Shown here: one piece after another, positions 1-35,253 of the stretch
Layout of the letters: every line of letters begins with the position of its first letter
Position numbering within the stretch: position 1 is the first letter of the stretch
DNA from: an uncultured virus (IMG/VR IMGVR_UViG_3300042691_017862)
Lineage: Duplodnaviria; Heunggongvirae; Uroviricota; Caudoviricetes
Strand: one strand, 5' to 3'
IMG/VR virus record: IMGVR_UViG_3300042691_017862
Length of the DNA: 64,000 nucleotides
Notes under the pieces: model-generated
Seen by the model: the letters and a program-made list of their open reading frames with translations, nothing else
Database searches by the model: none
What the model was told of the DNA's origin: nothing
Program-made: the position numbers and the translations under genes

Positions 1-24
1 GACTACTCAATGGATAGCCAATAG

Positions 25-66
25 TTATCCACCAACTTATCCACCAGATCGTAGAGTTATCCACCA
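25..66 (+). repeat. Three direct repeats TTATCCACCA (DnaA-box-like) near the window start
   Basis: TTATCCACCA at 25-34, 37-46 and 57-66; further TTATCCA at 139 and 156; first 9 nt differ from the DnaA box TTATCCACA at one position. Confidence 0.7.
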
Positions 67-206
67 GATGAGGGAGCATGGGGAATATCAATGAGATTAG
101 TTTAGTGATAGTCTACTTCTATCATCTATGATTATCATTTATCCATTCATTTAGTTTATCCATCTTTTTAGTTGACACCTCATCTGGTCTACTATATATA
201 GATGCA

Positions 207-311
207 ATGAAACACATCATTATTAGTTTACTTATATCGTTTGTCACTCTTTTCGCTGTAATGGCTGCCACGCAGCGTTTTGCTAGTATACTCGTGTCAA
301 TGCCTCACTAA
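207..311 (+). CDS. Small hydrophobic 34-aa protein, possibly leaderless
   Basis: Hand-translated MKHIIISLLISFVTLFAVMAATQRFASILVSMPH*; TTGACA(172)-17 bp-TATATA(195-200) ends 6 nt before the ATG. Confidence 0.4.
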   Translation: MKHIIISLLISFVTLFAVMAATQRFASILVSMPH

Positions 312-371
312 TCAGATCATGGGCTTAAATCGCCTTATAAAGCAAAGCCATTCAACTAATATCGTTGTGGC

Positions 372-477
372 TGTCTATTTTGTATACACTGTCTAAAGTC
401 TATACACTTTTTACCCTCAACTAATATCATTGATATGTAATGATTACGCTATGTTATAGCTTGGCACAGCCTATGCA
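372..477 (+). promoter_or_regulatory. sigma54-type promoter P1 with tandem upstream palindromic boxes
   Basis: TGGCAC-AGCCT-ATGCA at 462-477 (GG and GC 12 bp apart); boxes TGTCTATTTTGTATACA 372-388 and TGTCTAAAGTCTATACA 390-406. Confidence 0.8.
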
Positions 478-519
478 TTATTAATCTGTAACGGGGAGTT
501 AACCCGAGGGAGTTAGAAT

Positions 520-666
520 ATGAGTAAACAAGAAGCTGTTAATGAAATCAATTTATTGAAACAAAAAATGCTAAATGATAACTTGACTCAAATCGAATAT
601 AATCGCTGCCTAGTTGCATTGATTGCATTATATGAGTCTGCATTAAACCCAAAAGTAGAGGAGTAA
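520..666 (+). CDS. Early hypothetical protein (48 aa, below ORF-track cutoff)
   Basis: GGGAG SD then MSKQEAVNEINLLKQKML...; first gene after P1. Confidence 0.65.
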   Translation: MSKQEAVNEINLLKQKMLNDNLTQIEYNRCLVALIALYESALNPKVEE

Positions 667-670
667 TACA

Positions 671-859
671 ATGAAAACAGTTTATCAAGTTGGTTATAGT
701 TCAGACAACAATTGGGTATACTTGGCAGAGTCAACGCTTTCCGTTGAAGAGGCTCGCAACGAATTGCATAGCATTCTACGCGCCGAGTCGTGCTATCAAT
801 CGGAATGGTTGAATAATTTTAGATATGTTGAAACTAAATACATTGAGGAGATCAACTAA
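671..859 (+). CDS. Early hypothetical protein
   Basis: ORF track; GAGGAG SD. Confidence 0.7.
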   Translation: MKTVYQVGYSSDNNWVYLAESTLSVEEARNELHSILRAESCYQSEWLNNFRYVETKYIEEIN

Positions 860-1018
860 ATGAAACAGGTTGAGCTTGAAATGTGGACACTCAAATATCA
901 ATTTGATTCGTTGATGCGTCAACTAATGACATGTAACGACTCTACTAAACGAAAAGAGTTGCAGGAGTCAATGGCTTCGGTTACTCGTAAACTAGATAAG
1001 TTGAATAAGGAGAACTAA
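860..1018 (+). CDS. Early hypothetical protein (52 aa)
   Basis: GAGGAG SD; MKQVELEMWTLKYQFDSLMRQL...; abuts both neighbours. Confidence 0.6.
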   Translation: MKQVELEMWTLKYQFDSLMRQLMTCNDSTKRKELQESMASVTRKLDKLNKEN

Positions 1019-1240
1019 ATGAAATCACTTAAGAAAGAATTCCCAAATCAAGTATATTCGTTGAATGCGCCAGCCAGCTCATATTCAACTGAAATCCTTA
1101 AGTCTGAACTAAAATCGTTGAGACGCTGCTGGATGATCAACTTGAAATTAAATCACACTAAATCAGTTGATTCACTAATGAAGTGTATAAACGAAATTAG
1201 TGGAGAACTTAAACTAAGATCATCACAAGGAGTAAAGTAA
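1019..1240 (+). CDS. Early hypothetical protein
   Basis: ORF track; AAGGAG SD. Confidence 0.7.
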   Translation: MKSLKKEFPNQVYSLNAPASSYSTEILKSELKSLRRCWMINLKLNHTKSVDSLMKCINEISGELKLRSSQGVK

Positions 1241-1552
1241 ATGAATAACGTTGTATATGTAGACTTTAAACAAAAAGCGTTGAAACCATACAATAAACGA
1301 GAATCGTTGAAAACTAAATGGGATAGAGTTGATCAACTAGATAAGTGGATTACTTCAACGTTAACCATTAAACAATTTGATCAGTATACAAAATCAACTA
1401 ATTTCATGGTGCGCGCTCAATCTTTAAAAAAGATAACTAAATCATTTAAGTTGAACAAGCATGCAAGCGAAATGATTGACCTTATCAACGAAATTCGTTT
1501 AGAACAAAATACAATGGAAAAGGTTTACACTTCCAATGATGTGCCTTTTTAA
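1241..1552 (+). CDS. Early hypothetical protein
   Basis: ORF track; AAGGAG SD. Confidence 0.7.
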   Translation: MNNVVYVDFKQKALKPYNKRESLKTKWDRVDQLDKWITSTLTIKQFDQYTKSTNFMVRAQSLKKITKSFKLNKHASEMIDLINEIRLEQNTMEKVYTSNDVPF

Positions 1553-1631
1553 TAGACACTTGACTAAACTTTTGACACCTAAAAGGTCTCTATTCAAATA
1601 TAACGTCGTATAAGCTGGCACAGCACGTGCA
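1542..1631 (+). promoter_or_regulatory. sigma54-type promoter P2 with tandem boxes
   Basis: TGGCAC-AGCAC-GTGCA 1616-1631; boxes TGCCTTTTTAATAGACA 1542-1558 and TGACTAAACTTTTGACA 1561-1577. Confidence 0.8.
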
Positions 1632-1658
1632 ATATAGTAAGTCAGGAGATAACAAAAA

Positions 1659-2279
1659 ATGAAACAACTAATCAAACGCAAAAACAAATTTTCCAAAAAC
1701 ATCCACCACGTATTGAGCCTAGCTAATTCAACGGATTTCGTTGAGGGTGAGAAGTGGTATCGCGACGCTCGATTGTATAGTTTTGAACTATCAAAAAAGT
1801 ATGGCATTTCTTTTCGCAAAGTGTGCGCAATTCTCGCAGCGTTATCGCCAAGAAACAAGTGGCAACGAAACAAGGAAGATGCTGAAACGCTCATTCAAGA
1901 GTGTCTTGGTTTAATCCCTTATGGGAAATTTGCAACTTACGGCGCAATGGTAGACAAGGCGCGTAAAGTGTTTCATTCAAAAGTTGATAGTATCCAAACA
2001 ATGTTAAAAATTCTTAACGGTCAAAAAATTTCAGCTTTTTTCCTTAATATCTATGATTCTAATAGTCAATGTGTGACAGTAGATAGCTGGATTCAACTAA
2101 TTTCATTGGGCGAATACCTTGCGGTAGATAAACGACCGTCGTTGACTAAAACCGATTACAAGTTGATTGAGGAAACCATCAAAGAACTTGCCTCAACTAA
2201 AAAGGTTGCGCCTCCAGTAATGCAAGCTGTTCTATGGATTTCGTTTAAAAGAATGACGGAACAAAAAGATTTCAACTAG
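1659..2279 (+). CDS. Conserved phage protein with HhH-type DNA glycosylase-like features
   Basis: Motifs AALSPRNKWQRN, K-x-x-x-F, VTVDSW and MQAVLW resemble HhH-GPD-like phage proteins. Confidence 0.5.
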   Translation: MKQLIKRKNKFSKNIHHVLSLANSTDFVEGEKWYRDARLYSFELSKKYGISFRKVCAILAALSPRNKWQRNKEDAETLIQECLGLIPYGKFATYGAMVDKARKVFHSKVDSIQTMLKILNGQKISAFFLNIYDSNSQCVTVDSWIQLISLGEYLAVDKRPSLTKTDYKLIEETIKELASTKKVAPPVMQAVLWISFKRMTEQKDFN

Positions 2280-2432
2280 AAAGGTTTAATTTATGGAAAT
2301 GTTATATACTATTTACTTTTTTGATGGCACAAAAATTGATCTGAAAACTTCAGATAATGAAATTCACATTCTACTAGAAAAGTGTAATGATTCAATTGAA
2401 AGCATTGAATTAGCGTAAAGGATTTTAACTAA

Positions 2433-2627
2433 ATGAAATTAACTGAATTAAGGAAAATGGTTGAACTTGCACAAAATGGCACAAGAGAAGATAAACTATT
2501 AGTGTTTAATTACTTAATCGATCAAGTTGAATTAAATGAACAGTTAAATTTTGGTGAACGAAAATTGTTGAGCGCATTGCGCGACGAACTTTTAAATGAA
2601 AATTGTTTACTCCAAAAGTCGGACTAG
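2433..2627 (+). CDS. Early hypothetical protein
   Basis: ORF track; AAGGA SD. Confidence 0.6.
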   Translation: MKLTELRKMVELAQNGTREDKLLVFNYLIDQVELNEQLNFGERKLLSALRDELLNENCLLQKSD

Positions 2628-2652
2628 TTACCCGACTTCCTTTCAACGAATT

Positions 2653-2689
2653 CCGTTGATGCAAGAAATTGTGTCAACGGTTTTTGTTT
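2653..2689 (+). terminator. Rho-independent terminator
   Basis: CCGTTGATGCAA-GAAA-TTGTGTCAACGG followed by TTTTTGTTT. Confidence 0.8.
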
Positions 2690-2902
2690 ATTTAACTACT
2701 CAACTAAATTCGTTTAATGATTCAATGATTTTCGTTGAGCGTTTATTTTTCGATTTAAGGGCATGATCTTTTTTAGTGGTGGAAGTATTACTATTAAAAA
2801 AACTATCGGGAAATCGAAACGTCGCGCAAATTTTTGTATTATATCGTTGTCTAAACATATTTTGAAACTATACTATCAGAACTATACAAAAAACTCGGAA
2901 AG

Positions 2903-2993
2903 TGTAAAAAATATAGTCAATCGGCTAATTTTTACACACCGAAAACTTGTCAGACTCATTTTAAAGGTGTTACAGACTGGCATGGTGCATGCA
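2903..2993 (+). promoter_or_regulatory. sigma54-type promoter P3 with tandem boxes
   Basis: TGGCAT-GGTGC-ATGCA 2978-2993; boxes TGTAAAAAATATAGTCA 2903-2919 and CGGCTAATTTTTACACA 2922-2938. Confidence 0.75.
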
Positions 2994-3025
2994 TTATATA
3001 ATATCAGAAAAGGTAGGAAGTAAAA

Positions 3026-3325
3026 ATGAATAAAACAGAAGTAAATGTATACTATTTGAATATAAACGGACTATTCGGAAGAAACCGAAAAGTTAAACGA
3101 GAAGTGTTTAGTCTTATTGAGAAACCTTTTGATGCGCCGATTTTAGGAGAAGATGCGCTTGACTTACTGGTATCAATGAAATTAAATGATATTAAACTAA
3201 AATACGGTAAAGCTAGTGTTACAATGAATAAAGTTACAATAGAAAACGATAATGGTATAATCATTAGAAGTCAATTACTTCACTTTAATGTTGCGCCGAT
3301 CAAAACTTATGAAATCAAACAATAA
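3026..3325 (+). CDS. Early hypothetical protein
   Basis: ORF track; directly downstream of P3. Confidence 0.7.
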   Translation: MNKTEVNVYYLNINGLFGRNRKVKREVFSLIEKPFDAPILGEDALDLLVSMKLNDIKLKYGKASVTMNKVTIENDNGIIIRSQLLHFNVAPIKTYEIKQ

Positions 3326-3341
3326 AAAGGAGAAAATAAAA

Positions 3342-3536
3342 ATGAATAAAGTAAATACAACGAAAAAGGTTTATCAAGTGTGGCGTAATGTTCCATCATG
3401 GACAAAAAAAGGTGAAACGGAAAGCATTGTATATAAAGAATGCGAAACGCTTACAGATGCTGGATATTTTCAATTTGAACTAATTAAAGCCGGAAATGAA
3501 ACTTGGCTACAAATTGTCGAAAATATTAACAAGTGA
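3342..3536 (+). CDS. Early hypothetical protein (likely start MNKVNT)
   Basis: AAGGAG SD precedes ATG at 3342, within ORF 3288..3536. Confidence 0.65.
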   Translation: MNKVNTTKKVYQVWRNVPSWTKKGETESIVYKECETLTDAGYFQFELIKAGNETWLQIVENINK

Positions 3537-3604
3537 CCAAAACTTAGACACTCTTTTAAGCTCATTTCAATTATAACACTGTTAAACTTGGCATGCAGCA
3601 TGCA
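3515..3604 (+). promoter_or_regulatory. sigma54-type promoter P4 with tandem boxes
   Basis: TGGCAT-GCAGC-ATGCA 3589-3604; boxes TGTCGAAAATATTAACA 3515-3531 and TGACCAAAACTTAGACA 3534-3550. Confidence 0.8.
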
Positions 3605-3649
3605 ATATATACTAATAACAATAGGCGATAAGCCGGAACGGAATGAAAC

Positions 3650-4390
3650 ATGAATACTGAAATCACGACACTAGACACGAAACTCGAAACACTATCAAAT
3701 AAATACAAGGTGGCATCAACTAAAGCCATTGCGCAAAAATTTAAAGATTTAGGGTTTACTGTAGATAAGTATCAAGAGGCAAAAGTTAGACGCGCATCTA
3801 AAAAAGGATACCAAAAGCATCTTGTAACATTGTCAAACGACACGCTATTAGGTGGAACTAAAAACGGAACTAAATTGCAAGTGTTAGTCACTAATAGTCA
3901 TGATGGAACTTCTAGTCTAGTTATCCAATTGGGAGTCTATCGCTTTGCATGCGCTAACGGCTTAATTGTAGGCGAAACTTTTGAAAAAATTAATATTCGA
4001 CACACTGGAGATATTGTCGAAAAAATTGAAGAGAATGTAATGAGAATCGTTGCACAAGCGAATCGATTGAATGATGTACTTGAAAAAATGAAATCGACAC
4101 AACTTGACGCGGAAAAAACACGAGAATTTTTTGATCGTGCGGTAAAATTGCGATACGAGAATAAAACATCAAGTGACGTGGAAATTCCAGTATTGCGCGA
4201 AGCCGATGAAGGAAACAATGTATTCAACCTTTTTAATAGAGTACAAGAATCGTTGATTCGTGGTGGACAAAAGGCAAAAAATAAACGCGGAAATCTGAGA
4301 ACAGTTAAGGAAGTAACGTCAATTGATACTCTTAAGCGTATTAATGAGGGTTTATTTGATCTAGCCGTAGAATATTCAAACGCGGCATAA
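3650..4390 (+). CDS. DUF932/DUF945-family phage/plasmid early protein
   Basis: Signature NSHDGTSS...GVYRFACANGL...IRHTG and FNRVQESLIRGG. Confidence 0.8.
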   Translation: MNTEITTLDTKLETLSNKYKVASTKAIAQKFKDLGFTVDKYQEAKVRRASKKGYQKHLVTLSNDTLLGGTKNGTKLQVLVTNSHDGTSSLVIQLGVYRFACANGLIVGETFEKINIRHTGDIVEKIEENVMRIVAQANRLNDVLEKMKSTQLDAEKTREFFDRAVKLRYENKTSSDVEIPVLREADEGNNVFNLFNRVQESLIRGGQKAKNKRGNLRTVKEVTSIDTLKRINEGLFDLAVEYSNAA

Positions 4391-4415
4391 TTTCCTAATA
4401 GAGAGTATTTAAACG

Positions 4416-4456
4416 AAGTCCGTTGACCTGCTGGGTTGACGGGCTTTTTTGTTTTT
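4416..4456 (+). terminator. Rho-independent terminator
   Basis: AAGTCCGTTGACC-TGCTG-GGTTGACGGGCTT then T tract. Confidence 0.75.
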
Positions 4457-4589
4457 AAACGCTTGAAATTCCCTTGATGCAATTACCCTAGTCTTCCTTT
4501 TCATGGTCAGAAATCGAAACGTCGCTCAAATTTTTGGGCATTATAGAACACTTTAAACGCGCTTTAAAATGTCTTATAAAACACCATAT

Positions 4590-4680
4590 TGTAAAAAGTT
4601 TAGACACCTGTATACTATTTACATACCTATCCTGTATTATCTCGAATATAAGCGGCGCACAGCTTGGCACAGTCAATGCA
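4590..4680 (+). promoter_or_regulatory. sigma54-type promoter P5 with tandem boxes
   Basis: TGGCAC-AGTCA-ATGCA 4665-4680; boxes TGTAAAAAGTTTAGACA 4590-4606 and TGTATACTATTTACATA 4609-4625. Confidence 0.8.
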
Positions 4681-4724
4681 TTATAGTAATACAAGAACGG
4701 TAAGCAAGCCGAACGGAGAATTAA

Positions 4725-4868
4725 ATGCTATACACATTATTATATACATGCAAAGATTGTAACTTACAATGGGAAGACATTTTCGAAGAAAAGTATGGAG
4801 AATGTGATGATGAATGTGAAAATTGCGGAAAAGCAATGACACCTATTAAAAATGAATGGAGAAAATAA
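4725..4868 (+). CDS. Small zinc-ribbon-like protein (47 aa)
   Basis: Hand-translated MLYTLLYTCKDC...ECENCGK with two CxxC pairs; GGAG SD; first gene after P5. Confidence 0.6.
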   Translation: MLYTLLYTCKDCNLQWEDIFEEKYGECDDECENCGKAMTPIKNEWRK

Positions 4869-4869
4869 A

Positions 4870-5166
4870 ATGAAACGTATTATCACAATGAATATGGGAA
4901 AAGGTGAAATGATTCGAATGGTTTTTCACAATGATTCCGGTCACGAATGGTTATCATGTAAAAAGAAACTATTAAATGATCTAGGTTTATCGGAAAAGAT
5001 TAGTGCATTTTCTTATCAAAAGGGAAAAACTGCATACTTAGAAGGAGATCTTGACGCTCAAATTTTAATCGAAAAGTTAATGCAAGAAAATTATTCTTTT
5101 TTAATAGTTGACGGCGCATATCGTAGAAGCTCACCTATTAGAAATTACGAAAGGTTTACAAAATGA
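4870..5166 (+). CDS. Conserved phage early protein
   Basis: Motifs DSGHEWL and SYQ...AYLEGDLDA resemble a recurrent small phage family (DPGHGWL...YLEEDCDA). Confidence 0.55.
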   Translation: MKRIITMNMGKGEMIRMVFHNDSGHEWLSCKKKLLNDLGLSEKISAFSYQKGKTAYLEGDLDAQILIEKLMQENYSFLIVDGAYRRSSPIRNYERFTK

Positions 5167-5429
5167 GTGAAGAAAATTTTACAGTGTTTACAGCCAAAAA
5201 AACTTTTGATACTTCACTCGGTACAATTCGAGTATATTCTAAAAGCGACGGAATGACAATAGGAAGCGCGGAAAATGAAATAGATGCTTTACTTGATGCA
5301 TTAAAGTACAAGGAACAAAGACAACGATATTATCAAAATAAATACAATAATCTTTTAAAAAGACTCGAAACGGCACAACTTGTATTGTTAGAAGAAGTTA
5401 ACGAACATTGTGATTGTAAAGAATATTAA
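5163..5429 (+). CDS. Hypothetical protein
   Basis: ORF track; ATGA overlap with upstream gene. Confidence 0.65.
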   Translation: MSEENFTVFTAKKTFDTSLGTIRVYSKSDGMTIGSAENEIDALLDALKYKEQRQRYYQNKYNNLLKRLETAQLVLLEEVNEHCDCKEY

Positions 5430-5441
5430 GGAGAAAAAGAA

Positions 5442-5669
5442 ATGAATAATACAAAAACAAAAGGTACAGTAAAATGGTTTAACGACGCAAAAGGATACGG
5501 CTTTATTAGTACAGAAACGATCAACGATATTTTTGTACACTATAGCGCAATTATAACCGACGGGTTTAAGACACTATCAGAAGGCGAAACGGTAGAATTC
5601 GAATTGAAGCTTGACAAAAAAGGAAGTCCGCAAGCTTGGGAAGTGACAAAGGAACAATATGAAGGATGA
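5442..5669 (+). CDS. cspA: Cold-shock domain protein
   Basis: [15 protein letters not shown] (RNP1), DIFVHYSAI (RNP2), [13 protein letters not shown]. Confidence 0.95.
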
Positions 5670-5801
5670 AATGAATTTAGTTGAATTAGAAGCTCACCTT
5701 GTAACACTCGAAGGGTACGCGCAAAAAAGCTTACCCGACGATATTAAAGAAAAACTAGAAACTGAAATAGCATTTTGGAAAAAAGAACTGGAGAAAATTA
5801 A

Positions 5802-6020
5802 ATGAAAAAATCACACAGTATTGCATTAGGTGAATATTTAAGCTGGTATGATGAAAGTCTAACATATAACGACATTGTGCATGCATTATACAATAACAAT
5901 GAAACAATGGAAAAAATAACAATATGGGAACCTTTTGAATACAGTCCAACGGAATTCGTTGCAGAACAAATCGAGTCTTTAGTTAGAAGTATTGAATCAA
6001 ATTATGGAAAAGAGGAATAA
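5802..6020 (+). CDS. Hypothetical protein
   Basis: ORF track; GGAG SD. Confidence 0.65.
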   Translation: MKKSHSIALGEYLSWYDESLTYNDIVHALYNNNETMEKITIWEPFEYSPTEFVAEQIESLVRSIESNYGKEE

Positions 6021-6189
6021 AACAATGAAAATTAAAAGCGCAACAATCGGAAATAATACATTGACAATGAAATCACATCAAGGCATTTATTATATATTGC
6101 ACAATGACTTGTGTGTAACGAATTCAGTTGAGTACAAATATATCAGCGATCTTTTCGACAAATTTTTGACTCAACTAAAAGGATAGAAT

Positions 6190-6453
6190 ATGAAACAAAT
6201 TGACTTGAATAGCTTATTACGAGATATTGAAATAAATCATATTAGAACAGCATTGGAACACACAGAAGAGAATGTTGCCAGTGCTGCTAAATTATTAGGA
6301 TTAAAAAGGACAACATTAATCCGTAGAATATCAGTATTAAATATACAAATGAATAGACCGAAAAGGACTTACATTCCTGAAGAAAAGTCTATTAATAATC
6401 CTTTTCTTGTTCGACACAAAAACAATATTGAAGACGATCTGTGGAATGAATAG
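6190..6453 (+). CDS. Stand-alone Fis-type (HTH_8) DNA-binding protein resembling a bEBP C-terminal domain
   Basis: IDLNSLLRDIEINHIRTALEHTEENVASAAKLLGLKRTTLIRRI matches the E..I..AL....GNV..AA..LG..R.TL pattern; no AAA+ domain. Confidence 0.85.
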   Translation: MKQIDLNSLLRDIEINHIRTALEHTEENVASAAKLLGLKRTTLIRRISVLNIQMNRPKRTYIPEEKSINNPFLVRHKNNIEDDLWNE

Positions 6454-6529
6454 ACACTTGACTAAACTTTAGACACTTAAAAAGTGCCAGCTCGAATATG
6501 ACTCACATAGAGGTGGCACAGCTCATGCA
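6440..6529 (+). promoter_or_regulatory. sigma54-type promoter P6 with tandem boxes
   Basis: TGGCAC-AGCTC-ATGCA 6514-6529; boxes TGTGGAATGAATAGACA 6440-6456 and TGACTAAACTTTAGACA 6459-6475. Confidence 0.8.
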
Positions 6530-6555
6530 ATATAGTAATACAGGAGAATGATGAA

Positions 6556-7230
6556 ATGCAAAAACTAGAAACATCAGTAAAATTAAAGCAACTTCTTTTA
6601 GACATCGAACTTGATTATATTAATCGAGCATTACATACAACATCAGGTATGGTTCAAAATGCTGCTAATCTATTGGGAGTAAAAAGAACAGCTCTTTCTA
6701 TGAGACTAGCTTTTTTTGGTGATAAAATCATTATGCCAAAAAAAATTAAAACTATTACTAAAAAAGAAATTATAGCACAAGAAAGAAAAAAAAGAATGCA
6801 AGAAAGGAGAATTGCAAAAGAAGCGAAAATACTAGAAAATGAAAAAATGCGGATTGAAAGGGAAGAAAAAAGAATACTAAAAGATCAACTAAAAAAAGAA
6901 AGTTTGGAATTATTATCAAGTAAAAAGACAAAAAAAGAACTGGAGCAATACATTCCTTTACCGTTTAATCCAGTTGACAAAATTAGGTATAATGATTGGA
7001 CTAATAAAGATACTTATTTGTGTGCCTGTGCAATTGAAAATATGACAGAGCATTTTATTAGAAAAGTTATTTTAATTGCGAGAAGTGATCAAGGGATTAA
7101 CACCAAAAAAAGAATATTGAATGTTTTAGCTGAAAGTGGTAGCACAGATAAGTTTAAAGTAGTCAATGTAAATTTTAATGAAATCGCAAACGAATATAAG
7201 AATGTAAAAATTAAGCTTAGAATAAGATAA
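6556..7230 (+). CDS. Fis-type HTH protein with coiled-coil and C-terminal domain of unknown function
   Basis: LKQLLLDIELDYINRALHTTSGMVQNAANLLGVKRTALSMRL then K/E-rich coiled coil; directly downstream of P6. Confidence 0.8.
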   Translation: MQKLETSVKLKQLLLDIELDYINRALHTTSGMVQNAANLLGVKRTALSMRLAFFGDKIIMPKKIKTITKKEIIAQERKKRMQERRIAKEAKILENEKMRIEREEKRILKDQLKKESLELLSSKKTKKELEQYIPLPFNPVDKIRYNDWTNKDTYLCACAIENMTEHFIRKVILIARSDQGINTKKRILNVLAESGSTDKFKVVNVNFNEIANEYKNVKIKLRIR

Positions 7231-7740
7231 TAAAAGGAGAATGAAAAAATGAAAGTAACTTTAGAACTAACAGAAACACAAGCTTGGACATTGACAGAGA
7301 TCGTATCTCAATTTGTTGATGAGCTTGGAACTGATTCCGATTTAGTAGATGATGGAGCAAAGCTTTACGAGCTTATTATTGACGCAAGAAGTAAAAAGGA
7401 GAATGAATAATGAAATATCCAATTGTATACAAGCAACTAAAATTGTTGATCAAGATTTGGGAAAAGCACGGAGGCGATGATAAAGAAGCCGTGATTAAAA
7501 TGATGAAAGAATCAATGAAAGAAATCGAACAGCAAATGAACTTTGAGGATTAAATGAACTATAAAATTGAAATACACAAAGCATCAAACGGTAAAAAAGG
7601 GTATGTTGTAATGATCGATTTTTTCCAAGATACCAGAAGCAAATATGCGGCAACATACTGCGTCAATGTTTCAACAAAAAAGGAAGCTAAAGAATGGGAA
7701 CAAAAAAACAAAGAGTGGTTAAGAAATACCGCTCGAAACT

Positions 7741-13111: not shown

Positions 13112-13126
13112 ATGATTTGATAGACT
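13098..13126 (+). promoter_or_regulatory. sigma70-type promoter upstream of structured RNA and nrdJ
   Basis: TTGACG-17 bp-TAGACT; predicted start coincides with the RNA closing stem at ~13132. Confidence 0.7.
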
Positions 13127-13131
13127 ATATA

Positions 13132-13274
13132 TGTGAAGAGTTGGCAAGCTGTGGCATTAGGTTCGTAGCGTATATAAGACCACTAGAAGCACACTATCTG
13201 CCCACCTAATAAAAGGTGTTAGAGGTTCCGTGCGGCAGACGTTGGGACACCAGATTCGCAATCTGCTCTTCACA
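13132..13274 (+). ncRNA. Structured tRNA-like RNA / 5' leader of nrdJ
   Basis: Closing stem TGTGAAGAG/CTCTTCACA; T-arm-like CAGA-TTCGCAA-TCTG stacked on it; internal stems CTGTGG/CCACTAG and TCTGCCCAC/GTGCGGCAGA. Confidence 0.65.
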
Positions 13275-13300
13275 AAATTTTACAACAAAGGAGAAACAAC

Positions 13301-28265: not shown

Positions 28266-28559
28266 ATGAGCTACGATAAAGAATTAATCATTGATCTTGA
28301 ATTTGCTTTGTGTGCCAAACTACAACCAACTTTTCTTGCAATAAGCGAGCCAGATGAAGACACCGGTGAGATAGAGATCATCATATCATGCAATCAATTT
28401 AATAGAAAAAACATACAAGAAAGAGTTTCTATCATTTTTAAGTTGATCGAAAACTATGTCCCTGCTATACTTGAAGACAGGTTGATATTAGTTACAGCTT
28501 TGAACAACAACGAGATGGACGAGGTACTGGATGATTTATTTAGTAGGGAGTTATTTTGA
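28266..28559 (+). CDS. Possible BolA-like protein
   Basis: IEIIISCNQFNRKNIQERVSIIF resembles the BolA V.S..F......RHR.V motif, but the His is absent. Confidence 0.35.
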   Translation: MSYDKELIIDLEFALCAKLQPTFLAISEPDEDTGEIEIIISCNQFNRKNIQERVSIIFKLIENYVPAILEDRLILVTALNNNEMDEVLDDLFSRELF

Positions 28560-28948: not shown

Positions 28949-30487
28949 ATGGATAATACAGAAAAGCTTGTATTTGGTAAAGCGAATATCAAAGGTGTTG
29001 TAGGTCTTGAAGTAGCTGACGATATAGCAGAAGTCTTTGTACAAGATAAAGATGGTGGTATAACTTCTGTATTTGTGCCTAATAGATTCTGGATTCTTTC
29101 TAATAAAAATATCAACGGGAAGTTCGCGAAGCTTAAAGGTGATCTCCATTATAAATGGGGAACACAATTTAAGGATAGAGCAACTTGGTCAAAGTGTCGT
29201 GGTGCTTGGAAAAAGAGCGACGACATTTTCAGCGTGTGGAATGCAGAAGAGTCGCTAATGATGAAGGACGGTATTACCTTCTATCAAGACTTGAAACTCA
29301 AAGACGTATCACTTCTCAGTTGGGACATCGAGACTACAGGACTTGATGGTACAGCTTCCGACGCTAAAGTACTCCTCATCTCAACTACGTATAGAGATCA
29401 ACACAAACAAGTTAATAAACTGTTTTCATATGACGAATATGAAACAGAAGCTGATCTTCTAGACGCATTCTCAGAGTACATTCAAGAAACCAATCCTTCA
29501 TTAATTCTTGGACATAATATCTTCGCATTTGACTTTCCGTATATGCAAGCTAGAGCAGACGCTTCCGGTACGCAACTAGCGTGGGGCCGTGATGGTAGTG
29601 CGGTCGAGTTTGAAGACTATGAATCCAAGTTTCGCTTAGACGGAACTCGCGACTTACTATACAAGAAGGTACGAGTCTATGGACGAGAAATCTGTGACAC
29701 ATTCTTTCTAGCTAATTCTTACGATGTATCTAAGAGCATTGAGTCATACGCTTTGAAGCCTATGATCAAGCAATTAGGACTTGAGAAAGCTGGTCGTCAG
29801 TATTATGATGCTGGTGACATCAGAAAGAACTACAAGAATCCAGTTGAGTTTACCAAGATCAAACAGTACGCAGAAGATGACGCAGAAGATCCAGTGAAGT
29901 TATGGGATTTAATGGGACCATTGTATTTCAACATGGCGACGATGTTTCCAAAGCCTTTTACAGAGATCCTACTAAGTGCTAGTGGTGGTAAGATCAATGG
30001 AATGATGTGTCGAGCTTACCTACAAGATGGACATAGCCTACCAAAAGCAGATGAGAGACAAGATTACATGGGAGCACTCTCTTTTGCAGTGCCGGGAATC
30101 TATAGCAATTGTTTTAAGATTGACTTGGCAGCTCTGTATCCTTCCATCATGATTGAGTATGAAGTATTTGACGATACAAAAGATCCAAACGGATATTTGT
30201 TACAGTTTGTTAAGATTTTTAGAGCAAAGAGACTTGAGTACAAGAAGCTTGCTGCTGATACAGGAGAGGACTACTGGAGAGAGATGGATACAACAGCGAA
30301 GTCTATCCTAAACTCCTTCTACGGCTTCTGTGGAACCGGTGGACTTAACTTCAACTCTTTTAGTTGTGCAGATTTTATTACAGCTAAAGGTAGGGAGATT
30401 TTGGAGTATACCATTAAGTGGGCCTCAGGTAGACCATTGACAGACTTTGTGAAAGATGAGACAATGGATGAGGAGGAAAGCGCATGA
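28949..30487 (+). CDS. Family B DNA polymerase, N-terminal subunit (3'-5' exonuclease, motifs A and B)
   Basis: WDIETTG, GHNIFAFDFPY, YAEDDA, KIDLAALYPSIM, KSILNSFYG, ITAKGR; ends in acidic tail before motif C. Confidence 0.92.
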   Translation: MDNTEKLVFGKANIKGVVGLEVADDIAEVFVQDKDGGITSVFVPNRFWILSNKNINGKFAKLKGDLHYKWGTQFKDRATWSKCRGAWKKSDDIFSVWNAEESLMMKDGITFYQDLKLKDVSLLSWDIETTGLDGTASDAKVLLISTTYRDQHKQVNKLFSYDEYETEADLLDAFSEYIQETNPSLILGHNIFAFDFPYMQARADASGTQLAWGRDGSAVEFEDYESKFRLDGTRDLLYKKVRVYGREICDTFFLANSYDVSKSIESYALKPMIKQLGLEKAGRQYYDAGDIRKNYKNPVEFTKIKQYAEDDAEDPVKLWDLMGPLYFNMATMFPKPFTEILLSASGGKINGMMCRAYLQDGHSLPKADERQDYMGALSFAVPGIYSNCFKIDLAALYPSIMIEYEVFDDTKDPNGYLLQFVKIFRAKRLEYKKLAADTGEDYWREMDTTAKSILNSFYGFCGTGGLNFNSFSCADFITAKGREILEYTIKWASGRPLTDFVKDETMDEEESA

Positions 30488-30687
30488 AATTTCCAATTAT
30501 TATATATAAAATTGCAGAACCAAAAACTTGTTGGTGGTCTAATATAAGAAGAAAAAAGAGCAAAGAACATATCAGACAAAGGCAAGATATGTTATTTGGA
30601 ATTACAAGAAGTTACCATAGAAATGAACGAAAATATATCTATAGGTTAACTATTGGTAGATTTACAATAGGAATTATGTTTCAATGA
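30484..30687 (+). CDS. Small basic hypothetical protein inserted between the polymerase halves
   Basis: ATGA overlaps with both polymerase ORFs; AT-richer than flanks. Confidence 0.6.
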   Translation: MKFPIIIYKIAEPKTCWWSNIRRKKSKEHIRQRQDMLFGITRSYHRNERKYIYRLTIGRFTIGIMFQ

Positions 30688-31403
30688 ACAATCATAACTT
30701 CCGCATCGTTGGTGGAGATACAGACTCCATCATGTTCTGTAAACCAGATATGGCCCCGTTCTCAAAAGAAGAACAGGACAATCTTCTTCTTGAGATCAAT
30801 TCGCTTTTACCAAAAGAGATCAAGTTTGCCAACGATGGGATTTTTTCTAAAGTAGTTTACTTGAAACCCAAGAACTACATCATGATCGATGAAAAAGGTA
30901 AGAGAAAGATGAAGGGGTCATCCCTTAAGTCTTCTACTCTAGAACCTGCTCTTAAAGAAATGCTAGGAGAATTCATCGAGACACTTCTTAATGATCAACA
31001 AGAACTTCTACCAGCAATCTACGACAAGTATATCCAACGTGCTTTGAACATCACTGATATCAAACCTTGGACAACGAAGAAGACCTTATCCCCAACGACA
31101 TACAAGAGCGAGCGTAAGAATGAGACTGACATTGTAGACGCAGTGAGAGGCACCGAGTACAAGTCAGGAGATCGTGTATACTTGTATGCTAAGTCGGAAG
31201 TGATTGAATTAGACGCGTTCTATAAGTCAGGAGCCAAGAAGGGACAGAGGAAGACTAAGAAGGTCAAGGTATACGGACTACAGGAAAACTTCGATGGAGT
31301 TTACTGTAAACAAACATACGTAGACAAAGTTCTTGCAACTACAAAAAGATTTTCTACTGTAATAGATACATCAATATTTAAAAAATACGAAGTTAAAGAA
31401 TGA
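30684..31403 (+). CDS. Family B DNA polymerase, C-terminal subunit (motif C, thumb)
   Basis: [21 protein letters not shown]. Confidence 0.9.
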
Positions 31404-31909
31404 TAACACAAGAAGAACTTAAACAATTATTACATTATGATCCTAAAACTGGTATATTTAAGTGGATTAAAACTAGATGCCATTTAGCAAAAAAAGGAAA
31501 TATTGCTGGATATAAATCAAAAGCTGGTTATGTTCAAATAAGAATAAAAAAGAAATTATACTATTCACATAGGCTGGCATTTCTATACATGACAGGAACA
31601 ATCCCAGAATTTGTTGATCATATAGATAGAGATCCAACTAATAATAAATGGTCAAATTTAAGAAGATGTACATCAAATCAAAATAATAGAAATAGTAAAA
31701 TTTTTATAACAAATACTAGTAATTATCGAGGTGTATCTAGAATAAAAAATAGTAAGAAAAATCCTTGGTCCGCTCAAATACATGTAAATAATAAATCAAA
31801 ATATTTAGGATGTTTTTCAAATCAAGAAGATGCAGCGAGAGCATACGATAAAGCCGCTATTAAATATCATGGTGAATTTGCCACTCTTAATTTTCCCAAA
31901 GAATCTTGA
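31400..31909 (+). CDS. HNH-AP2 homing endonuclease
   Basis: [35 protein letters not shown]2 motif [29 protein letters not shown]. Confidence 0.9.
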
Positions 31910-35176: not shown

Positions 35177-35253
35177 TGGGAAGTAGCTCAGTTGGTAGTA
35201 GCAAATCGCTGTTAACGATTAGGTCGCGTGTTCGAGTCACGCCTTCCCAGCCA
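35177..35253 (+). tRNA. tRNA-Asn (GTT) with encoded CCA
   Basis: Acceptor TGGGAAG/CTTCCCA; anticodon arm AATCG-CTGTTAA-CGATT; T arm GCGTG-TTCGAGT-CACGC; 3' GCCA. Confidence 0.92.

Follow-up and report, generated by a model that had tools for sequence, protein, structure and literature searches.

An array of candidate sigma-54 promoters with paired upstream boxes before early-looking genes of an uncultured freshwater phage

By which polymerase, and under whose control, are the first genes of an uncultured phage read? The question is raised by the left end of a 64-kb stretch of viral DNA (IMG/VR record IMGVR_UViG_3300042691_017862; G+C 36.5%), referred to here as the window. It belongs to an uncultured, podovirus-like freshwater phage and bears six promoter-like sites, each behind a pair of 17-bp boxes, ahead of genes that look early. 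An initial annotation, made from the letters of the sequence, had taken these sites for sigma-54-type (-24/-12) promoters with enhancer-like boxes. In silico this assignment is supported by the motif itself, by its selective conservation, by its recurrence elsewhere and by the failure to find a polymerase or sigma factor gene in the window. Sigma-54 dependence of the six promoters is likely on these grounds. With somewhat less confidence, the fuller reading is also judged probable, namely that the sites are promoters of host RpoN whose tandem boxes serve as docking sites for an activator of the bacterial enhancer-binding protein (bEBP) type, with phage HTH_8 proteins modulating them.

Six bipartite sites and their paired boxes

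The pattern TGGCAYNNNNNRTGCA (TGGCAY-N5-RTGCA) was matched six times in the window, always on the + strand and within 6.6 kb, and the start positions 462, 1616, 2978, 3589, 4665 and 6514 given in the initial annotation were reproduced exactly. Dinucleotide shuffling gave a mean of 0.12 matches, and six matches were reached in none of 100 shuffles. With the looser pattern TGGC-N8-TGCW, eight sites were found (1.86 expected), the additional ones being two - strand sites at 28337 and 60244. When one mismatch was allowed, 14 sites were obtained against 9.0 expected, which is chance level. Because neither relaxation added anything credible, the six sites, numbered P1 to P6 from left to right, are regarded as the only credible ones in the window.

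All six sites are co-oriented with genes, and an ATG with a GGAG-type Shine-Dalgarno sequence begins 28–47 nt downstream of the C in GC, in line with the earlier statement that every copy points into a gene with such a sequence. P1 (462..477, TGGCAC-N5-ATGCA) precedes the ATG of its first gene at 520, P2 (1616..1631) lies upstream of a DUF7178 gene (1659-2279), and P3 (2978..2993) is followed by an ATG at 3026. P4 (3589..3604) stands upstream of a DUF932 gene (3650-4390), P5 (4665..4680) heads an operon (4725-6453), and P6 (6514..6529) precedes the gene for a 224-aa HTH_8 protein and a long train of + strand genes. The intergenic placement claimed for every copy was recovered in two forms. P1, P2, P4 and P6 are situated in gaps free of open reading frames (ORFs), at 397-519, 1553-1658, 3537-3649 and 6454-6555, respectively. 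P3 and P5 are situated in stretches of about 350–400 bp downstream of terminator-like + strand hairpins with T runs, which close the P2 unit (2653..2680) and the P4 unit (4415..4447), and these stretches are overlapped only by short, mechanically listed ORFs. The core sites form repeat families, and a 54-nt module with 61–81% identity (repeat family D2) is shared by P2, P4 and P6, which shows duplication.

Between the terminators and P3 or P5, some 150 bp ahead of each site, a 27-nt repeat was noted (2810-2836 and 4510-4536, 96% identical), and a related copy is present in a distant relative (contig L024, described below) at about 5838. This repeat may act as a weak sigma70 promoter or be bound by a protein.

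Upstream of each site, on the same strand, two 17-bp boxes are arranged in tandem, and all twelve were found where the initial annotation had placed them. The pairs span 372..406 at P1 (boxes 372-388 and 390-406), 1542..1577 at P2 (1542-1558 and 1561-1577, within the D2 module), 2903..2938 at P3 (2903-2919 and 2922-2938, which fit the consensus least well; family D5), 3515..3550 at P4 (3515-3531 and 3534-3550), 4590..4625 at P5 (4590-4606 and 4609-4625) and 6440..6475 at P6 (6440-6456 and 6459-6475). The boxes of a pair are separated by 1, 2, 2, 2, 2 and 2 bp from P1 to P6. The proximal box ends 55, 38, 39, 38, 39 and 38 bp before TGGCA, again exactly as first described. Measured from the predicted start, the box centres lie about 73 and 92 bp upstream.

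On the + strand of the window, the tandem pattern TG-N12-ACA-N1-2-TG-N12-ACA is confined to 372, 1542, 3515 and 6440, which belong to P1, P2, P4 and P6, with a palindromic echo on the - strand at 406. In 300 Markov-1 simulations a mean of 0.35 occurrences per 64 kb was obtained for both strands together, with a maximum of 4. Seven copies of TAGACAC are present on the + strand, five of them inside boxes. The box pairs are repeated, dyad-like upstream sites specific to the promoters, as enhancers would be, and each box, at 17 bp, is as long as the NtrC box in the available text of PMC8743547.

As had been proposed at the outset, relatives were scanned for the motif. In a close relative (L139), many proteins of which are 65–99% identical to those of the window, all six sites were recovered, at 2131, 3319, 4360, 4972, 6061 and 7325 for P1 to P6. 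Between L139 and the window, the TGGCA and TGCA blocks differ at 0 of 54 positions and the seven intervening positions at 16 of 42 (Fisher p = 2.5e-7), with a flank divergence of about 19% (23/120, 14/72 and 21/108). A distant, syntenic relative (L024/L025; proteins 40–71% identical, among them DUF7178 with 71%, DUF932 with 61% and a cold-shock protein with 64%) keeps P1 (L024 4197) and P4 (L024 6011) with their box pairs, and also one leftward site, in surroundings where the neighbouring non-coding DNA is not alignable. Neither counterparts of P2, P3, P5 and P6 nor gaps at those places were found in L024, so the number of units varies. The scan of relatives therefore returned six of six sites in L139 and two in L024, with blocks kept and the spacer drifting.

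The sites also recur in viral contigs unrelated to the window. A contig with a P22-like portal and without protein similarity to the window (G001, IMGVR_UViG_3300028557_000216) has five sites, all on the same strand, in 4.3 kb at one of its ends, whereas the reversed-pattern control gave 0; T-T/A-GACA-C/T repeats end 30 or 42 bp upstream of the sites. At three of these five sites (L012, - strand, 452, 1979 and 3367) the ATG follows 14–15 nt after GC within a conserved YATAGKAWTGTATGAA, and leaderless or nearly leaderless mRNAs are therefore predicted. A further contig (G006) has 4 + 2 sites and one box resembling the P2 box of the window. The largest array was found in a 217-kb phage record (G004, IMGVR_UViG_3300021399_000099; loci L120 and L128; 28-57.6 kb and scattered), where TGGCAY-N6-TGCW was matched 37 times forward and 9 times in reverse (control: 0 + 1), the forward sites lying between 30.0 and 57.6 kb. 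The scan by which G004 and G006 were found required a TATA-like tail and the tail is biased in both for this reason; their site counts did not require it. For background, 79 other viral loci (877,008 bp) had 12 sites, of which 3 fall in the relative L025, and 77 metagenome loci (498,462 bp) likewise had 12.

Most G004 sites have the form TGGCACG-N4-TTGCW followed by a conserved TATAGTATAGTGTAACC-like run, and GGGGTATATTAAAA-type boxes lie upstream of them. In the G004 record, which is 61% complete, no bEBP, HTH_8 or sigma-54 gene was found; its single match to PF00158 was rejected as a bEBP, being a ClpA/B-like chaperone by sequence. No sigma-54 or bEBP gene came to light in any of the array-bearing records other than the window. 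In other viral contigs, ORFs of 241–291 aa were observed that consist of a Sigma54_activat domain without a DNA-binding domain (DBD) and belong to phrog_7998 ('unknown function'); all seven that were checked against Pfam were confirmed (E 1e-47 to 1e-59). Of 62 such loci found, 21 were examined, and in 11 of them (L313-L316, L319, L321, L334, L343, L352, L355 and L360) a sigma-54-type site (TGGCAY-N6-TGCT) follows the DBD-less bEBP ORF on the same strand within at most 45 nt.

Sigma factor, activator and rival explanations

All six sites agree in letters and spacing with the motif of the E. coli RpoN holoenzyme, TGGCACnnTTnTTGC, which has TGGCA at -24 and TGC at -12 according to the available text of PMC8743547. 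Blocks and spacing are selectively kept and the spacer is free, as is characteristic of RpoN promoters. A sigma70 reading lacks a -35 element: no -35-like hexamer is present 16–18 nt before the TATAGT-like run that follows GC, and TTGGCA is only 12 nt away from this run. The run itself resembles a -10 hexamer, through which alone sigma70 might still act. P1 to P6 were not listed in a sigma70 consensus scan, and in G001 the downstream run ends in G and not in the T needed by a -10 hexamer. Host sigma-54 is the best reading, since the letters and spacing are those of RpoN and no phage polymerase, sigma factor or AAA+ activator was found in the window. Pfam searches of 70 window ORFs gave neither an RNA polymerase nor a sigma factor, PHROGs searches of 35 ORFs gave no polymerase, the DxDxD motif is absent from 10 large - strand proteins, and no Sigma54_DBD was found in five related or similar viral records. 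The invariant blocks with their free spacer, the orientation and placement of the sites and their recurrence in unrelated contigs all fit a bipartite promoter that a factor of the host recognises.

Two genes for HTH_8 proteins flank P6, both on the + strand. P0001 (87 aa; 6190..6453; Pfam HTH_8 E 1.1e-9, 38.3 bits) is encoded by the last gene of the P5 operon and P0002 (224 aa; 6556..7230; E 1.2e-4, 22.2 bits) by the first gene after P6; both scores are above the curated cut-off of 22 for PF02954. P0001 carries a conserved acidic-aromatic C-terminal tail, NNIEDxLWNE, and has small full-length metagenome homologues with 38–51% identity. The best solved match of its family profile is the DNA-binding domain of FleQ (structure 8p53, E 5.5e-7). 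A word-index search of P0001 against longer proteins was empty and a full HMMER search gave relatives; 10 of the 17 longer database relatives scanned have Sigma54_activat plus HTH_8. One relative of its helix-turn-helix (HTH), named 'sigma-54 specific flagellar transcriptional regulator A', is 58% identical across 50 residues. P0002 consists of an N-terminal HTH_8, a Lys/Glu-rich middle and a C-terminal part without assignment, and only 2 database relatives of it were found; its homologue in L024 scores higher (HTH_8 E 3.3e-11, 43.2 bits). Since L139 keeps P0001 without P0002 and L024 only the P0002-like protein, each relative has at least one HTH_8 protein. The phage HTH_8 proteins are without an AAA+ ATPase or a receiver-like domain.

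The nearest long relative of P0001, P0011 (439 aa), is a bEBP that has two HTH_8 domains and no regulatory domain at its N-terminus. It occurs on several large contigs of about 130–158 kb and could belong to a large phage or plasmid.

From the DNA sequence we infer the sigma-54 dependence, the box binder, the role of the HTH_8 proteins and the timing. The sigma-54 holoenzyme stays closed on a promoter until an ATP-driven AAA+ activator acts. Host RNA polymerase with sigma-54 would read the six sites, by which the leftmost 7 kb would be divided into six units of early transcription. The holoenzyme would sit closed on TGGCA (-24) and TGC (-12) and would be opened only by an AAA+ enhancer-binding activator. 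The paired 17-bp boxes are likely docking sites for a dimeric, HTH_8-type DNA-binding domain, and the simplest candidate for docking there is a host bEBP with a domain of the FleQ/NtrC type. The phage HTH_8 proteins, which lack the ATPase, would most likely compete for the boxes later and thereby modulate the promoters or shut them off. Activation by one specific host bEBP, and with it the gating of infection by a physiological state that the initial annotation drew from it, is conjectural, and the phage's own HTH_8 proteins could be the ones that bind the boxes.

Several observations weigh against this account. GC is followed by the run A/T-TATA-G/T-T, which is -10-like and foreign to the usual sigma-54 consensus. 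No Sigma54_activat domain was found among the 70 window ORFs (Pfam), on the 22.6-kb contig of L024 with its flank, or in G001; as neither the window nor the relative's flank holds a bEBP gene, the activator must be assumed. A signal-gated activator for early genes would be risky for a lytic phage. The conservation was read at orthologous sites located by the same pattern, which a decayed orthologue would escape; in L139 all six were obtained. The distance between box and promoter is variable (38, 39 or 55 bp; 30 or 42 bp in G001), and helical phase is not kept.

The box consensus is loose, and its well-kept part is the right half T-A/T-G/T-ACA only. The initial annotation had described the boxes as palindromes of the form TGT-N11-ACA. 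The tandem pairs proved promoter-specific, but the single dyad is not enriched in the window (58 against 48 expected) and several boxes deviate from it: the proximal box of P3 begins with CGG, its distal box ends in TCA, and the proximal box of P5 ends in ATA. The box signal is the pairing, the placement and the right half-site and not the loose dyad. A literature search for TGT-N11-ACA as a published bEBP motif gave only a paper on a LysR regulator, and one on the idea that they are PilR sites yielded nothing usable.

Attempts to assign the boxes to a known binder also count against the account. The twelve boxes match the Fis motif GNTYAAAWTTTRANC (Table 2 in the available part of PMC6907758) at 6–10 of 13 positions, which is background level, and a reading as Fis sites was rejected; Fis-motif sites with at least 10 of 13 positions numbered 88 in the window against 123 expected. 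FleQ, the flagellar master bEBP of Pseudomonas, binds a box GTCaNTAAAtTGAC, the consensus of which is called unreliable by PMC6120874 itself in the text available. This box is GTCA-N6-TGAC, 14 bp; the phage boxes, of the form GTC-N9-GAC or GAC-N9-GAC, were judged by eye to be one bp longer, and the FleQ-box reading was likewise rejected.

Among the rival explanations, the one nearest to the favoured reading retains the sigma-54 promoters and has the boxes bound by phage HTH_8 or host Fis-like proteins in an architectural or repressing role, with the activator working from solution, either as a DBD-less host bEBP or as a phage bEBP encoded outside the window. It draws on the two HTH_8 proteins beside P6, of which each relative keeps at least one, on the frequency of DBD-less bEBPs in viral contigs with a sigma-54-type site nearby in 11 of 21 loci, and on the partial state of the genome in the window. 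We consider it unlikely, given that Sigma54_activat was not found in the ORFs and contigs named above, that G001 has the box type yet no HTH_8 in its 21.7 kb, and that the fixed upstream offset of 38–39 bp is typical of activator sites.

The TATAGT-like run can also be taken at face value. By analogy with the sigma appropriation of T4 middle promoters, a phage activator would bind TGGCA near -30, where it would stand in for a -35 element, and sigma70 would read the run 11 nt downstream as its -10. After every window site A/T-TATA-G/T-T follows at a near-constant offset, the spacing of 11 nt between box and hexamer is within the T4 MotA range, and a sigma70-like promoter upstream of P1 could first supply the phage activator. 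What makes this explanation improbable is the invariant TGCA block directly before the hexamer, which it leaves unexplained, together with the hexamers themselves: P1 has TATTAA, and those of G001 and of the leftward sites described below end in G or C. Moreover, the bipartite motif recurs in unrelated contigs and elsewhere adjoins true Sigma54_activat genes, and no MotA- or AsiA-like protein was found by Pfam or PHROGs.

Very improbable is a phage-specific RNA polymerase, carried in the virion or encoded outside the window, that reads a contiguous element of about 28 bp and resembles sigma-54 by chance. Crass-like phages carry virion polymerases. The conserved stretch does span TTGGCA to TATAGTAAT, several large - strand proteins are without a family match, and a 1611-aa protein is crAss muzzle-like by features only. 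However, the central 5–7 positions vary between invariant blocks, unlike single-block phage-polymerase promoters; no polymerase family was matched and DxDxD is missing from the 10 - strand proteins; the 1611-aa protein is without a solved-structure relative; and unrelated phages would all need the same polymerase. The least credible explanation is that of non-promoter operator or recombination cassettes spread by duplication. The shared P2/P4/P6 module and the repeat families of the core sites are as it would predict, but the element is asymmetric, always co-oriented with genes, and placed before start codons and after terminators, and its two blocks are selectively kept in relatives while the remainder drifts.

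Leftward sites, sigma70-like promoters and genome setting

Two records with the same sequence as the window reach beyond its position 1 on the left, L137 by 741 bp and L138 by 811 bp. In this extension (L137 651-710; L138 721-780), two tandem leftward sites of the TGGCAC-N6-TTGCT type and one rightward site are present, and leftward and rightward sites together form a TGGCA...TGCTATAGCA...TGCCA palindrome; a similar palindrome is found in L024 at 3678-3711. A - strand ORF lies about 270 bp left of the leftward sites, which may drive - strand genes and feed the virion block. For this - strand block, no recognisable promoter was found within the window.

The leftward sites have as their upstream DNA the beginning of the window, where TTATCCACC and TGGATAG repeats cluster. 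Three TTATCCACC repeats are located at 25, 37 and 57, and copies of TGGATAG and TTATCCAT are found on both sides (window 25-65 and on to about 165; L138 about 780-811). L024 has TGGATAGTCA repeats at the equivalent place. The TTATCCACC cluster is DnaA-box-like and, lying between leftward and rightward promoters, might be an origin of replication, or else upstream sites of a second type.

Upstream of P1, a sigma70-like promoter was read by eye at 172..200 on the + strand (TTGACA 172-177, 17-nt spacer, TATATA 195-200), with 10 of 12 consensus letters and without the final T of the -10. It is followed by the first rightward gene (207..311, + strand), which encodes a conserved, hydrophobic 34-aa peptide ending in LVS[MI]PH. 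The same arrangement of promoter and peptide gene is found in L024 at about 3934-4073. In the long + strand train behind P6, no further strong intergenic signals were found over many kb. In a consensus scan with at least 11 of 12 letters, the + strand yielded nine sigma70-like sites, from 8,895 to 42,403, and the - strand two; given these nine, internal sigma70 promoters for middle genes are plausible.

The initial annotation had further suggested a cascade from sigma54 to sigma70 to late genes. It is weakly supported: the nine internal sites agree with it, but a sigma70-like promoter precedes P1, and the leftward sites indicate that the use of sigma-54 is not confined to the rightward early genes. 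The order sigma54, sigma70, late is not established. A more far-reaching picture is tentative and, in our estimate, rather unlikely. In it, most of the phage programme would depend on host sigma-54. One host activator of the FleQ or motility type would drive the rightward units and ATPase-less copies of its DNA-binding domain made by the phage would shut them off, while the leftward set, beside the DnaA-box-like cluster, would drive the - strand virion genes. The activator would then necessarily be active in cells that display the phage receptor, and a broad, so far undescribed class of sigma-54-dependent phages would take in the window phage and include the 217-kb phage with 46 sites and the phages with DBD-less mini-activators.

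The window is divided into a + strand gene block from 1 to about 44.3 kb and a - strand block from 44.5 to 64 kb. The + block begins with small ORFs without assigned function, DUF7178, DUF932, the cold-shock protein and the two HTH_8 proteins, and goes on with ribonucleotide reductase, dUTPase, ERF recombinase, a primase-helicase and a split family B DNA polymerase (PolB). Internal-virion-like and tail-fibre proteins are encoded in the - block. Capsid, portal and terminase are missing from the window genes, so the window is not the whole genome. Its DNA is present in freshwater, fungus and sediment metagenome runs, all recorded as DNA; for positions 300-7300, the list comprised 13 runs and no RNA run.

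Searches for a cultured relative or a host gave little. Megablast of window positions 1-7000 against cultured phages gave no match, and there is no close cultured relative. The best tblastn matches of PolB were only 26–30% identical, and for tail fibre and PolB together only distant or domain-level matches without a clue to the host were obtained by this method. A scan with the single protein DUF932 across viral contigs found nothing. Matches of the cold-shock protein in bacterial genomes (54–69%) were scattered over many phyla and indicated no host.

Further features were noted in the + strand block. PolB is split over two ORFs (28949-30487 and 30684-31403), directly behind which lies an HNH-AP2 endonuclease gene (31400-31909), and a gene for tRNA-Asn (GTT) is situated at 35177-35253 amid + strand genes. 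A 189-bp gap (13112-13300) precedes the ribonucleotide reductase gene; no Rfam family was found there, nor by an Rfam scan of the whole window. By its features alone, the 1611-aa protein is similar to clusters of crAss-like muzzle proteins, and no relative of solved structure was found for it.

Relation to known systems and meaning

Bacterial sigma-54 promoters (glnAp2/NtrC, nifH/NifA and pspA/PspF) have the same TGGCA/TGC spacing and tandem upstream sites of about 17 bp, and no -35. The phage promoters differ from them in heading early-looking genes of a lytic-type phage, with six in 6.6 kb. Compared with the RpoN motif, TGC is preceded by A or G in place of T, and a TATA-like run follows GC. 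Classic bEBP enhancers are positioned at -100 to -150, whereas the phage boxes are closer (about -73 and -92) and have no activator gene nearby.

The closest phage precedent is Pseudomonas phage YuA, for which dependence on sigma70 and sigma54 and a sigma54-like promoter region, P015, are described in the available text of PMC10914365. As far as that source goes, YuA resembles the window phage in being virulent, in having no RNA polymerase of its own and in bearing a sigma54-like promoter; it differs in having one such region among mostly sigma70-like and phage-specific promoters, whereas the window has an array with paired boxes and HTH_8 proteins. No DNA similarity between YuA and the window was found by megablast. 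The dual dependence of YuA reportedly goes back to Ceyssens et al. 2008. In a literature search on sigma-54 phage promoters and phage-encoded activators, nothing closer than YuA was found. The accessible part of a paper on a Pectobacterium phage gives only a weak HHpred likeness to sigma-54, and the Htm preprint (10.64898/2026.10.06.757011), which in the part available deals with an AAA+ protein lacking both GAFTGA and HTH, was set aside as having no bearing on the window phage.

With FleQ, the window phage shares the match of the P0001 profile to the FleQ DNA-binding domain, and in both systems the box is an A/T-rich core flanked by GTC...GAC. The phage box is, however, GTC-N9-GAC, often with TGAC as its left half, where that of FleQ is GTC-N8-GAC, and the phage proteins lack AAA+. 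The likeness to Fis lies in the HTH_8 family and in a box core of G-N13-C with an A/T-rich centre. At rRNA promoters, Fis sites lie upstream, in tandem and near -70. In contrast to Fis, P0001 has no N-terminal Fis half, the alignment covering Fis residues 53-97 only. Phages with DBD-less bEBPs of phrog_7998 possess the ATPase without the DNA-binding domain, while the window phage possesses DNA-binding domains without the ATPase, together with boxes. New here is an array of putative sigma-54 promoters with enhancer-like boxes on a phage, together with phage-borne HTH_8 proteins.

In textbooks, sigma-54 promoters are tightly gated cellular switches, and one expects the early promoters of phages to be either strong sigma70 sites that work unconditionally or sites read by a polymerase of the phage itself. 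If the reading as host RpoN promoters with docking boxes is true, the start of infection is tied to one host regulator: the early genes should fire only with the matching activator at work in the cell, which would give a testable link between host physiology and phage success. Such a dependence would also point to an early-to-middle switch of a novel type, with DNA-binding domains of an activator as decoys. The cassettes of promoter plus enhancer, about 110 bp long, may serve as orthogonal parts. The arrays in unrelated contigs, the jumbo phage with 46 sites and the DBD-less activators suggest that the use of sigma-54 by phages extends far beyond YuA, the one published case that the literature search brought up.

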